Shown here: in pieces, positions 4,462 through 9,379 of the stretch
Layout: each line of letters starts with the position of its first letter
How positions within the stretch are numbered: the stretch's first letter is position 1
DNA from: a virus
Taxonomy: Duplodnaviria > Heunggongvirae > Uroviricota > Caudoviricetes
Virus record (IMG/VR): IMGVR_UViG_2636416136_000013
Span: 1-40,427 of that record
Direction: 5' to 3' (one strand)
Length of the DNA: 40,427 nucleotides
Notes under the pieces: generated by a model
The model's database searches: none
Told to the model about the DNA's origin: nothing
The model's input: the letters and a program-made list of their open reading frames with translations, nothing else
Made by a program: the position numbers and the translations under genes

Positions 4462-4640
4462 TTCTTCCCACTCCGCCACATCGCATTCAGATATTTGTTG
4501 TCATTAACAGAACCGAAACTCTTTCTCTTAAGCAATTCCTCTCTCGATGGCATTGGCTTTACGCGTTGGCGAATAATCATTTCTGCCGGAAGAATGCCGG
4601 GATTGTATGCAAGTCCTCTCATGGTAAATTCCTCAGTCAT
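4458..4640 (-). CDS. Hypothetical protein (61 aa)
   Basis: Start MTEEF... overlaps the stop of the upstream 97-aa gene (ATGACTGA); ends in an ATGA overlap with the next gene. Confidence 0.45.
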
Positions 4641-4926
4641 TACTGATAGCGCCATAGCGTGAGCGGTAATTACGCAGGCGCGGGTCAATTTCAGGGAAGT
4701 GGGTATATGTGGCTTTGCGGAATGGTCGGATTGATGTCTGGTAAATTCGCTCGCGTTCTTCTTTCTCTGCAAGCCATATACAGTGGCGAAATTCCTTTTC
4801 CTCTTTCGTTTCCTGCGGTAGAGACATTATTCGATCGTAGTTTTTTCTGAATTTATCCAGCACCTCCGATACGGAATTGCCGGAACAGCGGCGCGCGTCG
4901 TCCTCACCATACAGAGGCGCTGGCAT
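4633..4926 (-). CDS. Hypothetical 97-aa protein; possibly Abc2-like anti-RecBCD protein
   Basis: Lies downstream of erf/ssb, where P22-like phages carry abc genes; the 97-aa length and [10 protein letters not shown]...CSGNSV start recall P22 Abc2. Identity is from memory only. Confidence 0.5.
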
Positions 4927-4949: not shown

Positions 4950-5333
4950 TTAGAAGGGAATTGAATCGTCGTATTCAGGATGATTTTGATGATTGCTACT
5001 TTGCTGCTGTTGGCTGTTTCCTGAAGCTGCAAATCCAATCTTCGCATTCAGTAATTCAAGAGTGATTGATTGACCATTTTGCCCCTGATAAACATCAACC
5101 CTGATGTTTTCTCCGGTAATTTCCACAATGCCACCTTCAACAAGAACACTACGGTAGTAATCCGCTTGAGCTCCCGGCTTGGCAAATACAACGGCGCTGT
5201 AGTTTGTCCACTCTTTCTTTTTTGTCTGGCGATCGTAATACTGAACGCCAGCACGGATGTTGAATCCGATATTTTCCCCGGCCTGAAACTCTCTTGCGGG
5301 CTTGTTTAGTCTTACAGTAATCGAATGTGCCAT
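4950..5333 (-). CDS. ssb: Single-stranded DNA-binding protein (short phage SSB)
   Basis: OB-fold-like N-terminal region, Q/N-rich linker and acidic C-terminal tail ...EYDDSIPF, the characteristic SSB tail. Start ATG overlaps the erf stop (TAATG). Confidence 0.75.
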   Translation of the reverse strand: MAHSITVRLNKPAREFQAGENIGFNIRAGVQYYDRQTKKKEWTNYSAVVFAKPGAQADYYRSVLVEGGIVEITGENIRVDVYQGQNGQSITLELLNAKIGFAASGNSQQQQSSNHQNHPEYDDSIPF

Positions 5334-5938
5334 TAAGCAGTTGCCCCTTCTAATTCGTCTCGTCTGATGTTGTAAACGTCCTGCGCTTTGTGCTGCTCCG
5401 GTGTGCCTTCGAGCATCTTCCACGCTTTGGCGAACGCCTGTTTAAGCTCTTCTACGGTGTTTTTCTGCATTGCTGCGTCAGTGAATGCTTTTAGAACCTG
5501 TTCAGGTGTAGGTGATGGTTTTGATTGCTTTGCTGCTGCGTTCTGCTGATGTTTATGCTCGTCTGTATCTGCATCTTTCGCATCATCAATGCCGAACAAA
5601 CCATTGAGGCAATACTTGCGCGCATAAGAGCTTGTAGCTCCCGTAACTTGTGCAGAATCCATTCCTTTCTTGCTTTCTTCCTCTCGTGCAAGAGCGGTTG
5701 CCGTATGGCTGCTTTCGCCATCGGTAATAGTTGCCGTGGCTTTCACGTAATACCGATCACCAATCAGCACAACTTCATCGCTGATTGATAAAAACAGGCC
5801 ATTCAGTAGCGGCTTAACGCCTTCAAGAATGTCTTCGCAGCTTCTGTATTTATATTTACCGAATGAGTTGTACTGATTCTTTGGCGCGTTCAGATTCTCC
5901 TGAATAGCTGCCAGTCTTGCGTAAAACTCTTTGCTCAT
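5333..5938 (-). CDS. erf: Erf-family single-strand annealing recombinase
   Basis: MSKEFYARLAAIQENLNAPKNQYNSFGKYKYRSCEDILEGVKPLL... closely recalls P22 Erf; start set at MSKEF rather than the track's upstream Met. Confidence 0.85.
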   Translation of the reverse strand: MSKEFYARLAAIQENLNAPKNQYNSFGKYKYRSCEDILEGVKPLLNGLFLSISDEVVLIGDRYYVKATATITDGESSHTATALAREEESKKGMDSAQVTGATSSYARKYCLNGLFGIDDAKDADTDEHKHQQNAAAKQSKPSPTPEQVLKAFTDAAMQKNTVEELKQAFAKAWKMLEGTPEQHKAQDVYNIRRDELEGATA

Positions 5939-6039
5939 ATGTTTGATCTCAGAATGGACACGGCCCAAGGAAATAACGCTGATTTAATACTTCGACTCGG
6001 GACAAATTAAGGCATACCCGCATTCCTTCGCGGTCACCA

Positions 6040-6198
6040 TTATGGCGATACCAGAGAGCTTTCTGCGTGTACATGCGCCTCTGTAACTTGCTCTCCTTCA
6101 CTGTGGTTGCAAGTGACATGAATATCTCCTTCGTTACCGATTAATTCTTTCATCTGACGAATGAATTCTTCGTCTGACCAGTTATCTGTAAAACTCAT
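6040..6198 (-). CDS. Hypothetical small protein (52 aa) in the kil position
   Basis: ATG forms an ATGA overlap with the cIII stop; no recognisable similarity to lambda Kil. Confidence 0.35.
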   Translation of the reverse strand: MSFTDNWSDEEFIRQMKELIGNEGDIHVTCNHSEGEQVTEAHVHAESSLVSP

Positions 6199-6365
6199 GG
6201 ACGGCCTTGTTGTTTCAAAATATCCCAAAGCTTTTCGAGCAAACTTTTCATTCTTGGTTGTTTAAAGTCTGCTCCGGTTAAAATATTTTTTCGTGAATGC
6301 TGTACCGATAAAATCGGGTTGAAAGGGCGAACCGATGCCGCCCCTGCAATAGCGAACTGTTGCAT
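6195..6365 (-). CDS. cIII: CIII-like protein (protease inhibitor that stabilises CII)
   Basis: MQQFAIAG... start and ...SLLEKLWDILKQQGRP match the lambda CIII pattern (MQYAIAG..., ...LIDILNQPG); AGGAG Shine-Dalgarno 7 nt upstream. Confidence 0.7.
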   Translation of the reverse strand: MQQFAIAGAASVRPFNPILSVQHSRKNILTGADFKQPRMKSLLEKLWDILKQQGRP

Positions 6366-6430
6366 AGGATGCTCCTTCTGTTTGATTGCATAACGAAAAC
6401 GCCTCAAGTGAAGCGTTATTGGTATGCATA

Positions 6431-6456
6431 TAAAAAAGCCCTCACATTGGAGGGCA
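6431..6456 (-). terminator. Rho-independent terminator (minus strand), tL1-like, between the 107-aa gene and cIII
   Basis: Stem GCCCTC/GAGGGC followed on the minus strand by TTTTTTAT. Confidence 0.55.
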
Positions 6457-6582
6457 AAGAAGATTTCCAATAATCAGAACAAGTCGGCTCCTGTTTAGTT
6501 ACGAGCGACATTGCTCCGTGTATTCACTCGTTGGAATGAATACACAGTGCAGTATTTATTCTGTTGTTTATGCCAAAAATAA

Positions 6583-6604
6583 AGGCCGACTATGCGGCCT
6601 TATC
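6583..6604 (-). terminator. Candidate terminator hairpin (minus strand) overlapping the 3' end of the 107-aa gene
   Basis: Stem AGGCCG/CGGCCT followed on the minus strand by TTATTTTTGG. Confidence 0.45.
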
Positions 6605-6913
6605 TACATTCCTGAACCAAACGCAGATCGGACCGTCTTCTGTATCGTGAATCGAACCAACAAACCATCCTTCTCCATCTGGCATGCTTGGCTCCCATCC
6701 GCTGATGTTTGGATTCCCATCTTCAAAATACGAGTCAATTACCGTTTGATTGTTGTCGTTTTCCATTTCAACAATTGATGATTCAATGCCATGCTGCTTG
6801 CAGAAAGATCTGAACTCATCAACTGAAATTACCTCTCTATCCCCAAACAGGTTGGCGTATTCTGGGTGCGTCCAGTAGCCATCCTCGCTTCGCTCTACTA
6901 CTAATGCTTCCAT
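6590..6913 (-). CDS. Hypothetical highly acidic protein (107 aa), first gene after N
   Basis: About 23 Asp/Glu against about 6 Lys/Arg in 107 residues, counted by eye; occupies the position where lambda encodes ral. Confidence 0.6.
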   Translation of the reverse strand: MEALVVERSEDGYWTHPEYANLFGDREVISVDEFRSFCKQHGIESSIVEMENDNNQTVIDSYFEDGNPNISGWEPSMPDGEGWFVGSIHDTEDGPICVWFRNVDKAA

Positions 6914-6921
6914 ATCTCACC

Positions 6922-7248
6922 TCAAATAAGTGGTTTGCTGCCTAATTTCATTTTCTGGCGACCAACACAAGTCATACCCATTTCACTGCGTGGCTTGCTG
7001 TACCATGTGCGCTGATTCTTGCGCTCAATACGTTGCAGGTTGCTTTCAATCTGTTCGTGGTATTCAGCCAGCACCGTAAGGTCTATCGGATTCAGTGCGC
7101 TTTCTACTCGTGATTTCGGTTTGCGATTCAGCGAGAGAATAGGGCGGTTAACTGGTTTTGCGCTTACCCCAACCAACAGGGGATTTGCTGCTTTCCATTG
7201 AGCCTGTTTCTCTGCGCGACGTTCGCGGCGGCGTGCTTGTGCATCCAT
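6922..7248 (-). CDS. N: Antitermination protein N
   Basis: MDAQARRRERRAEKQAQWKAANPLLVGVSAKPVNRPILSLNRKPKSRVESALNPIDLTVLAEYH... is near-identical to lambda N as recalled (arginine-rich boxB-binding motif at the N-terminus). Start set at MDAQ. Confidence 0.92.
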   Translation of the reverse strand: MDAQARRRERRAEKQAQWKAANPLLVGVSAKPVNRPILSLNRKPKSRVESALNPIDLTVLAEYHEQIESNLQRIERKNQRTWYSKPRSEMGMTCVGRQKMKLGSKPLI

Positions 7249-7354
7249 CTGGATTCTCCTGTCAGTTAGCTTTGAGTAACGCGCCGTGATGCTTATCTCC
7301 ACGGTTGCTGTCTTGCAGCTGCATTTCGCGCTACTCAAAGCCTTCTGCTTTGAA

Positions 7355-7395
7355 TGCTGCCCTTCTTCAGGGCTAAATTTTTAAGAGCCTCACCT
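7355..7395 (-). promoter_or_regulatory. nutL site (boxA and boxB)
   Basis: Minus-strand reading gives GGCTCTTAAAAATTTAGCCCTGAAGAAGGGC: boxA-like CTCTTAA plus the boxB hairpin GCCCTGAAGAAGGGC (plus 7359..7373), matching lambda nutL. Confidence 0.8.
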
Positions 7396-7428
7396 TCAAT
7401 GGTGGTCAGTGCGTCCTGCTGATGGCTA

Positions 7429-7457
7429 AATAGTACGATTTGTACTTTATCGAGTCA
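7429..7457 (-). promoter_or_regulatory. Candidate PL promoter with overlapping OL operator
   Basis: Minus strand reads TTGACT, 17-nt spacer, TACTAT; the spacer and -10 overlap a perfect palindrome AGTAC-N5-GTACT (plus 7431..7445). Confidence 0.6.
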
Positions 7458-7522
7458 ATACAAAATGTTCTAAATATAATTAGTTTTTTATAACGCTTTG
7501 TATTTAATGGGTTTATATTTTG

Positions 7523-7553
7523 GAAAAAGAAAACCCGGCGCTGAGGCCGGGTT
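7523..7553 (-). terminator. Rho-independent terminator ending the cI / 348-aa gene transcript
   Basis: Stem CCCGGC/GCCGGG with 6-nt loop followed on the minus strand by TTTTCTTTTT, just downstream of the 348-aa ORF stop. Confidence 0.7.
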
Positions 7554-7562
7554 TGGAGTGCA

Positions 7563-8609
7563 TCACTCTGGTTCGCTGGGGAATATATTTATCAATTGCC
7601 CTGTTGAAATGTGCCCATTTTCTACAACCTCTAGGTATGAAATTTCAACAGTTGATTCTTTGGCTACAGCATTCAAAAACTCAAGAAGCTCATCAGTAGA
7701 TGTTATGTCGGCTGAGGTTTTTATGGTGAAAGATTCACCATTTGAAACCCTTATGACGTCAATATTTATGTCCTGATTTGTTTCTCCCGAGCGACGAACG
7801 CCAGTGACATAAAAGTTATCTCTTCTAGTTTCCTTTTTTCGATCAATTGATTGTCTTTGGTTTAAGGTATTCAACTGTTCTCTATTTACCACTCTCTGAC
7901 CAATTGTTACCCTCTCAACTGACGAGTCTTGAGCAAGCTTTTTAAGCAACTTGCTTTTACCATCCTCGCCGTGAGCCAGAACCTCTCTGCTAATGTTTGT
8001 TTGACCGCTAATCAACAACTTGAGCACATTGTCTTGTGCTTCGTTTACCGCTTTGGTGCTTTTTTCCACCAATTGCACCTGAGAATCTTGGTCATGTCGC
8101 TGTGTTTCGTAGTACTCATTGATCCACTTATAGCCTACCGTGCTGGCAGCTAAGACGATAGCGGCGACGGCGCATAGTGCTTGCCTTCCTGTCATTTTGC
8201 CTATCGCTTGAGTAAACACTGTCACCACTCCGTTTACAATCGGATCTGAGTCACCATCCGCTTGGCTTGAGCCTTCGCTTATTCGGTAGACAATATCCAG
8301 CAAACCTTTCTCTGCATCTTTTAGCTTCTGCCGATTATGAGTGCTGTGACTGACTACCGTAAATGCTTTTTGTATTTCATGCGTAAGCTCTGCCATACCA
8401 AAAAGCATTGACGCAGTCAATGAAGAATTATATCTATTTGGATCGCCTTTTACATTAATATTGATCTTTGGCCATCCACTGAAAACTACGTTAGGGAATG
8501 TGAAGTCGCTTGAGTCGATATCCTTCCTTCCGAGCATTTCTGTTACAAAAGATACAAAGTCGTCTTCTGACTTGATAACATATTGCGCAGGTTGATCAAT
8601 CGCTGACAT
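7563..8609 (-). CDS. Hypothetical 348-aa protein with one central hydrophobic segment, in the rexAB-equivalent position
   Basis: Starts 25 nt downstream of the cI stop on the same strand, with AAGGA Shine-Dalgarno 7 nt upstream; hydrophobic stretch ALCAVAAIVLAASTVGY mid-protein; followed by a terminator. No recognisable family. Confidence 0.7.
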   Translation of the reverse strand: MSAIDQPAQYVIKSEDDFVSFVTEMLGRKDIDSSDFTFPNVVFSGWPKININVKGDPNRYNSSLTASMLFGMAELTHEIQKAFTVVSHSTHNRQKLKDAEKGLLDIVYRISEGSSQADGDSDPIVNGVVTVFTQAIGKMTGRQALCAVAAIVLAASTVGYKWINEYYETQRHDQDSQVQLVEKSTKAVNEAQDNVLKLLISGQTNISREVLAHGEDGKSKLLKKLAQDSSVERVTIGQRVVNREQLNTLNQRQSIDRKKETRRDNFYVTGVRRSGETNQDINIDVIRVSNGESFTIKTSADITSTDELLEFLNAVAKESTVEISYLEVVENGHISTGQLINIFPSEPE

Positions 8610-8634: not shown

Positions 8635-9288
8635 TCACCCAAACGTCTCTTCTGGCCACTGGCTGGCGATAACTTTCCCTACAACGGAACAGCTATCATT
8701 GCATGGGATCATTGGATATTGCGGGTTTAGTGGTTGTAGGAACACCTGACCGCTATCCCTGATCAGTTTCTTGAAGGTAAACTCGTCACCACCAAGTCTG
8801 GCTATGCAGAAATCACCTGGCTCAACAGCCTGCTCAGGGTCAACGAGAATTAACATCCCGTCAGGAAAGCTTGGCTTGGATCCTGTTGGTGCGGTCATGG
8901 AATTACCTTCAACTTCAAGCCAAAACGCACAATCACTGGCTTTTTTGGTTGTGCTGACCCATCTCTCCGCATCACCTTTGGTAAAGGTTCTAAGCTCAGG
9001 CGAGAACATCCCGGCCTGAACATGAGAAAAAACAGGGTACTCATATTGTTTTTTAACGGGGGCAGATGAGTATTCGCCAACAGGTGAAAATGTACCGTCG
9101 TGGTTGAATGAGACGTTATCAATACCAAGGTATTTAAACACCACACCAATCTCGTCAAGAGATGGATGACGAGATCCGCGCAACCAGTGACCAATTCCAC
9201 CCTGCGTCATACCAAGCTCTTCAGCCAACTTCTCTTGAGTTATGCCGAGCTCTTTCATTCTGGATCTAGCCAGTTCATACCATTTCAT
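8635..9288 (-). CDS. cI: CI-type prophage repressor (lambda-identical C-terminal domain, distinct HTH N-terminal domain)
   Basis: C-terminal ~130 aa ([38 protein letters not shown]...[12 protein letters not shown]) matches lambda CI including the Ala-Gly cleavage site and Ser/Lys catalytic residues; N-terminal HTH ([35 protein letters not shown]) differs. Start set at MKWYE (AGGA 7 nt upstream). Confidence 0.92.
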
Positions 9289-9350
9289 TTTCATATCCTT
9301 ATTATTACGCTCTGTACTAAAACCATCCATGCACAAGATGTATTTTTTGT

Positions 9351-9379
9351 TTGCATTCCAAAAGTACATATCGTATTAT
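9351..9379 (+). promoter_or_regulatory. Candidate PR promoter with overlapping OR operator
   Basis: TTGCAT (9351..9356), 17-nt spacer, TATTAT (9374..9379); the spacer contains AAGTACATATCGTATT, resembling the OL palindrome. Confidence 0.6.

Follow-up and report, generated by a model that had tools for sequence, protein, structure and literature searches.

The most acidic protein encoded in the window (the whole 40,427-nt stretch of the Caudoviricetes record IMGVR_UViG_2636416136_000013 that we analysed), as ranked among all of its ORFs of at least 80 aa, is the product of a 107-aa gene of the orf184/PHROG 1372 family that directly follows the antiterminator gene N (6590..6913, minus strand; listed as an ATG-started ORF). 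We consider its most probable role, at a rough probability of 45%, to be that of an immediate-early accessory protein that would bind a basic surface of a host or rival protein as a decoy and would be sensed by Gop-beta-cII. The gene occupies the place of ral in related phages, its relatives appear to keep their negative charge under selection, and a near-identical allele has a published Gop-beta-cII phenotype.

An acidic gene in the place of ral

The window protein contains 23 Asp/Glu residues against six Lys/Arg, three His and 13 aromatic residues (F+W+Y), and its pI was computed as 4.09 with a net charge of about -17 at pH 7. These values agreed with the first-pass annotation, made from the DNA letters and an ORF list, which had described a highly acidic 107-aa protein with several aromatic residues and had proposed that its pI and charge be calculated. 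A Shine-Dalgarno-like GAGGTGA (6917..6923, minus strand; direct sequence reading) overlaps the TGA stop codon of N (6924..6922), the minus strand reading ...ATT TGA GGTGAGAT ATG with 8 nt from the N stop codon to the ATG. This site, the match to PHROG 1372 and 1009 clusters of relatives identify the ORF as a true gene, more than a chance ORF. N itself (6922..7248, minus strand) was recognised by Pfam PF11438 (N36, E = 3.3e-25) and shares about 98% DNA identity with N of HK542, HK544 and Dewey, which confirmed the acidic ORF as the first gene after N.

Upstream of N, the promoter and hairpin scan detected a PL-like sigma-70 promoter (TTGACT, 17 nt, TACTAT; 7430..7458, minus strand), and the HK544 record has a lambda-PL-like promoter annotated at the equivalent place, immediately before N. 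The hairpin listing also placed upstream of N a nutL stem-loop, GCCCTGAAGAAGGGC (7359..7373, minus strand), which we take to be the lambda boxB sequence. The first minus-strand terminator-like site downstream of the promoter is a hairpin at 6572..6601 (minus strand; stem 6601..6582 followed by TATTTTT), which has a 7-bp stem with five G-C pairs (-14.5 kcal/mol, z = -2.57) and encloses the TAG stop codon of the acidic ORF. Going upstream from the ORF, the next hairpins are the stem of boxB at 7373..7359 and, past the promoter, a terminator-like site at 7554..7531. Thus, of the terminator-like hairpins that had been described on both sides of the gene, the one on the 3' side (6601..6582) stood, whereas none was present on the 5' side, where the few nucleotides separating N from the ORF leave no room for one. 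The absence of any terminator-like site from the PL-like promoter to the end of the ORF argues for co-transcription with N, and the gene should be immediate-early, expressed together with N even before antitermination acts. The early expression proposed at first would fit this order of PL-like promoter, boxB, N and ORF, with the first terminator-like site only after the ORF. The promoter scan of the window found no promoter of the ORF's own.

The segment 6588..6906 is an exchangeable mosaic cassette, delimited by blastn junctions, that replaces ral and its flanks. In HK544, where ral follows N, blastn homology to the window covers 6432-6587 and 6907-7274, and ral occupies the interval that corresponds to 6588-6906; given these shared flanks, the cassette stands in place of ral, and the two cassettes have no blastn-level similarity to each other. 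Dewey matches the window at 6560-6600 (the hairpin, 100% identity) and 6911-7500 (N) and carries yet another cassette. The acidic ORF therefore fills the ral slot of HK544 exactly, in line with the ral position suggested at first, and exchange between flanks shared with HK544 and Dewey bears out the view that the gene is an independently acquired module. The Sf6 record annotates a 'boundary sequence' under its match to the wider query 6400-7450. A prophage of E. coli strain AH21A060 is 100% identical over the aligned stretch 5900-7500, and its early-left operon runs in the order N, acidic ORF, a 56-aa gene, erf, a hypothetical gene and abc2 (annotated as anti-RecBCD). The full cassette was found in 41 of 5,426 complete E. 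coli genomes.

Several features of the surrounding region were also recorded. In the window, erf (5333-5938) lies beside a 97-aa ORF (4633-4926, minus strand) that corresponds to the RefSeq 'phage anti-RecBCD protein' (Abc2) in the same operon, so the operon already holds one known host-takeover function. Comparison of 6198-6432 with the HK544 locus (L003, 228-1501) revealed that the window is without the block of kil, cIII and 'gene 33'; between common flanks, this interval spans about 1.27 kb in HK544 and about 0.23 kb in the window. An unannotated 56-aa ORF (6195-6365, minus strand; MQQFAIAGAASVRPF...LLEKLWDILKQQGRP) with a GGAG ribosome-binding site lies just after two terminator-like hairpins (6455..6438 and 6417..6398), in the cIII position of related phages. 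Its N-terminus presumably resembles that of lambda CIII, a Pfam scan of the ORF gave no match, and three IMG/VR loci (e.g., L014) also have the same ORF next to the acidic gene on its downstream side. A 348-aa ORF (7563-8609, minus strand; RefSeq hypothetical WP_001272876.1) with its own terminator-like hairpin (7554..7531) occupies the position of rexAB in lambda, flanked by the cI-like repressor (8635-9369) on one side and the PL-like promoter on the other. It matched nothing in Pfam or PADLOC and is a candidate lysogen-expressed exclusion or defence gene.

The PHROG 1372 family and its predicted fold

The window protein matched PHROG 1372, a family whose function is unannotated, over residues 1-106 (HMM, E = 1.7e-43), and also had a full-length HMM match to PHROG 20322 (E = 1.4e-16). 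The earlier statement that no family could be recognised is superseded by the PHROG 1372 match, the family having a member with a published Gop-beta-cII phenotype. A 28-member profile searched against 1.84 billion representatives returned the 1009 clusters of relatives (E <= 1e-3), and an IMG/VR scan confirmed at least 540 relatives among the 599 pattern matches listed. With tblastn, relatives were detected in 84 phage records, the host genera being Escherichia, Pectobacterium, Erwinia, Yersinia, Klebsiella, Vibrio, Pseudomonas, Burkholderia, Ralstonia and Nitrincola. The window protein had no match in Pfam at E <= 1, nothing meaningful in NCBIfam or PADLOC and nothing among PDB sequences (phmmer); Foldseek against BFVD returned uncharacterised family members only, and literature searches on PHROG or locus-tag names found nothing.

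Across the 180 family domains examined, the median excess of D+E over K+R was 15 per domain of about 105 aa (17 in the window protein), and pI was below 5 in 97%. Judged from these sequences, PHROG 1372 is a large family of the phages of Proteobacteria, with about 1,000 clusters and conserved acidity, and its negative charge appears to be under selection. Close relatives share the signature V.R...G.WTHP.Y ... W.P..P.G.GWF.GSIHDTEDGP.C.W.R, and in a sample of 120 family members less than 60% identical to each other, 17 residues were conserved in at least 85% (R8, G12, W14, H16, P17, W73, P75, P78, G80, G82, W83, F84, I88, G94, P95, W99 and R101), all of which the window protein carries.

Half of the 180 domains are stand-alone, whereas about 40% are extended by 50 aa or more at the N- or C-terminus; the window protein is a typical stand-alone member of PHROG 1372/PHROG 20322, unlike the many members fused to further domains. 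The extensions are very diverse and mostly unassigned, and the acidic domain can carry them on either flank. Among 20 fused relatives scanned against Pfam (10 of the 20 also against PHROGs), the only recognisable partners were a DHH/DHHA1 phosphoesterase (one case), a complete PF16473 DEDD 3'-5' exonuclease (two cases) and, weakly, a DnaJ-type zinc finger. A phage domain of some 95 residues that turns up repeatedly (AERxRQ..EGW..HDD..GELA.AAA.Y..WPW...KPS..R.LVKAGALILAEIERLDR), fused on either side of the acidic domain, is the main recurring partner in the largest extension cluster (17 of 75) and was seen in P0048, P0052, P0063, P0089, P0090, P0091, P0096, P0105 and P0127. An assignment of this commonest partner (ERxRQ...HDD...WPW...KAGALILAEIERLDR) as MazG/DUF550-like was considered and dropped, as a PDB profile search and Pfam scans matched nothing.

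N lies immediately upstream in 25 close viral homologue loci, with a variable downstream neighbour; homologues 45-49% identical adjoin unrelated genes, a Ser/Thr phosphatase and a methyltransferase-like gene among them, and in phi1026b, PY54 and D6 the homologue sits in arrays of small early accessory genes. Among 80 viral loci and three distant phages, no conserved partner gene was found except N in the close subfamily.

The predicted model of the window protein has a pLDDT of 86.7, and the published AlphaFold model of orf184 exceeds 95 for most residues. For the geometry of orf184, the CA, CB and charge-centre atoms were transcribed from the published model (CA-CA distances of 3.66-3.95 A), which gave a domain of about 41 x 33 x 23 A with salt bridges R101-E44 and R26-E33. 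The conserved residues are almost all buried in this model (W14, W73, P75, W83, F84, I88, P95, W99, R8 and H16) and therefore form the core; the only exposed conserved residues, as judged on the 120 relatives, are P17, G80, E92 and D93. No obvious catalytic pocket was found. A catalytic or metal site built from H16, H89, D90, E92, D93 and C97, which are conserved in close relatives, was rated unlikely because the conservation of H89 does not extend to the wider family and H16, C97 and R8 lie in the interior. H16, with 99% conservation and with E18 and H41 close by, may yet belong to a metal or ligand site, though with low probability. The model thus indicates conserved residues that are structural rather than catalytic and a conserved surface feature that consists of negative charge, and the predicted fold resembles no solved structure. 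The 23 carboxylates are evenly spread on the orf184 model (resultant of 0.17 vs. 0.16 +/- 0.07 for random exposed sets). The family-conserved acidic positions are biased to one pole (permutation p = 0.02), with clusters at 51/53/90/92/93 (the TEDG beta-turn at 90-93, plus E51/D53) and 7/9/10/64/67/69; as modelled, this bias is modest and belongs to the family level only.

Triggering of Gop-beta-cII and competing explanations

The window protein is 96.3% identical over all 107 residues to gp45 of phage mEp213 (AFM76385.1), from which it is separated by four substitutions (V28A, V31A, S36Y and S61A). This gp45 is UDP0184, or orf184, in Supplementary File 3 of Silas et al., where its annotation reads '??? 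- checked but nothing meaningful found' (bioRxiv 10.1101/2023.04.06.535777), in agreement with the null HMM and fold searches here. In that study, expression of orf184 was lethal in ECOR59, transposon suppressors of the toxicity fell in beta and gop, and the cloned gop-beta-cII of ECOR59, a P4-satellite abortive-infection system, restored orf184-triggered cell death in a lab strain; the locus was classed as an accessory region holding ral, and orf184 was termed 'counter-defense-associated' (bioRxiv 10.1101/2023.04.06.535777). The gop-beta-cII system also protects against lambda and P1. Since expression of orf184 activates Gop-beta-cII and kills the cell, the bacterium appears to read either this protein or what it does as a sign of infection. 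The triggering was shown with the mEp213 protein and may extend to the 96%-identical window allele.

Like the window ORF, orf184 of mEp213 lies in the early-left operon downstream of N, within the accessory region where other phages have ral; in mEp213, however, a 75-aa gene separates N from gp45, whereas the window ORF directly follows N. The mEp213 record (L001, 1953-2285 and 3438-3710) carries two annotated antitermination protein N genes in tandem in this operon, one similar to N of HK244 and the other to N of HK620, with three small hypothetical genes between them and the second N just upstream of the orf184 homologue. On the defence side, in the phage P4 locus (L088, 247-2540), Gop (133 aa) has two predicted N-terminal hydrophobic (membrane) helices, and cII is basic (pI 9.4) and annotated as 'sce7726 family'; a Pfam scan of Gop and cII gave no family for either, whereas beta belongs to PF14350.

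We read the acidic ORF as the E. coli lambdoid orf184, an exchangeable accessory gene taking the place of ral after N, whose product is predicted to be a small alpha/beta protein that folds stably around a buried core rich in Trp and has a strongly negative surface. It is most likely non-enzymatic and would probably act stoichiometrically, its acidic surface docking on a basic surface, probably one that binds nucleic acid, of a protein from the host or from a rival element; the protein so bound would be blocked or redirected. Such docking may serve as a host-takeover or counter-defence decoy, and Gop-beta-cII would sense the orf184 protein or its effect. The apparently structural conserved residues, together with a surface negative charge that is partly focused at one pole, point to a basic surface as the most likely binding partner, and the anti-RecBCD gene abc2 (4633-4926) in the same operon provides context for a takeover role. 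Several points argue against docking as a decoy. The protein is not among the counter-defence hits named in a screen of 196 genes and 45 pairs (PMC12373910), the carboxylates of this protein are evenly spread and the pole bias is modest and family-level, the fusions to a PF16473 exonuclease and DHH/DHHA1 could mean a role in nucleic-acid metabolism, H16, 99% conserved near E18 and H41, might belong to a metal or ligand site, and the structural points rest on predicted models.

The first-pass annotation had put forward a DNA-mimic anti-restriction or anti-defence protein. One such reading is an Ocr/ArdA-type mimic or a functional Ral analogue that would block type I (or III) restriction-modification or BREX by occupying the DNA-binding groove. 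The exact ral slot and the immediate-early position are in keeping with this reading, as is a net charge per residue of -0.159 that falls between T4 Arn (-0.098) and T7 Ocr (-0.239); the pI of 4.09 also lies within the range of about 3-5 that marks the carboxylate density of DNA mimics. T7 Ocr, ArdA and T4 Arn are likewise small, very acidic (pI about 4), early phage or plasmid proteins, and Ocr, ArdA and Ral, as orf184 does, trigger bacterial cell-death backup systems (bioRxiv 10.1101/2023.04.06.535777). Lambda Ral shares with the acidic ORF the genomic slot, the logic of early expression and the swapping of cassettes between identical flanks, but it is a protein of 66 aa (a 201-nt gene in HK544) that modulates type I restriction-modification and has no sequence relationship to the acidic ORF. 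The window protein, with no Pfam match at E <= 1, had no sequence or fold similarity to a known DNA mimic (Ocr/ArdA/Arn). A pooled companion screen on the same platform, with orf184 in its library, covered 196 accessory genes in 45 attenuated phage-host pairs and identified Ocr, Ral, ArdA, six new genes and Ip2 as infection enhancers (PMC12373910). The protein was absent from both the named hits and the unvalidated candidates of this screen, the term orf184 being absent from the main text (PMC12373910). This counts as a genuine, if limited, negative result for anti-restriction activity of a broad kind, and it leaves an anti-defence role unproven and perhaps narrow. Because similarity in fold or sequence and a named screen hit are missing and no DNA-like shape is apparent, the anti-restriction proposal went unsupported and we regard it as improbable. 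By analogy, the orf184 protein may come closest in its action to Ocr and ArdA, acidic early anti-defence proteins that also set off backup immunity, but it does not belong to their families.

The acidic domain could instead assist or regulate phage nucleic-acid or nucleotide metabolism, for instance by docking exonucleases or phosphoesterases onto a partner or by regulating them, the stand-alone form then being a detached module of such proteins; in our estimate this is unlikely. The extensions of at least 50 aa on about 40% of the 180 domains, the two PF16473 exonuclease fusions and the single DHH/DHHA1 fusion would suit such a module, and so would the location of the PY54 homologue ORF48, three genes from an annotated exonuclease and adjoining a recombination gene, and of the window gene within the erf/abc2 recombination operon. 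However, the partners are extremely diverse and occur on either side, which resembles promiscuous domain shuffling more than a dedicated pairing, half of the family is stand-alone, no neighbouring gene is conserved, and for the most frequent partner neither Pfam nor the PDB gave a match. Direct neutralisation of part of a rival mobile element, such as binding of cII (sce7726 family) or beta of P4-like satellites, would imply that the real target is satellite interference and not chromosomal defence; we consider this quite unlikely. Gop-beta-cII is carried by P4-like satellites, the orf184 suppressors lie in beta and gop, P4 cII is basic (pI 9.4), and the predicted N-terminal membrane helices of Gop are typical of an effector. 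Yet the family extends to phages of Burkholderia, Pseudomonas, Vibrio and Nitrincola, far beyond the hosts of P4-like satellites, and lambda is also blocked by gop-beta-cII although it is absent from the family matches in the phage collection; Gop-beta-cII therefore does not depend on the orf184 protein alone. Lambdoid early-left regions do hold exclusion genes such as sieB, which phage ev243 annotates at this locus, but a prophage-expressed superinfection-exclusion or defence gene is highly improbable here. The acidic ORF is co-oriented and tightly coupled with N downstream of the PL-like promoter and therefore should be repressed in a lysogen, no promoter of its own and no PADLOC match were found, and the published phenotype of orf184 is that of a trigger of defence, not a defence (bioRxiv 10.1101/2023.04.06.535777).

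Possible implications for phage counter-defence

Both the gene and the one phenotype reported for it have been described before, a near-identical copy having been cloned, screened and reported as a Gop-beta-cII trigger. What is added here is a large family whose charge appears to be under selection, conserved residues with a predicted structural role, a modelled fold unlike solved structures and the position of the ORF before the first terminator-like site. A bolder and rather doubtful extension is that the PHROG 1372 domain represents a new fold class among anti-defence proteins, one of acidic nucleic-acid mimics or decoys, widespread in the temperate phages of Proteobacteria and often fused to an exonuclease or phosphoesterase (bifunctional), with Gop-beta-cII as a guard on its immune target. 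If this is true, Gop-beta-cII detects the action of PHROG 1372 on that target, as PARIS senses Ocr.

These findings raise the questions of how the phage benefits from an abundant, conserved, immediate-early acidic protein and why a satellite-borne abortive-infection system detects orf184. Triggers such as Ocr (for PARIS), Gam and others (for retrons) are usually inhibitors of another immune or repair pathway. Knowing what orf184 targets would therefore probably uncover an anti-defence mechanism and, with it, the logic by which Gop-beta-cII senses its trigger.
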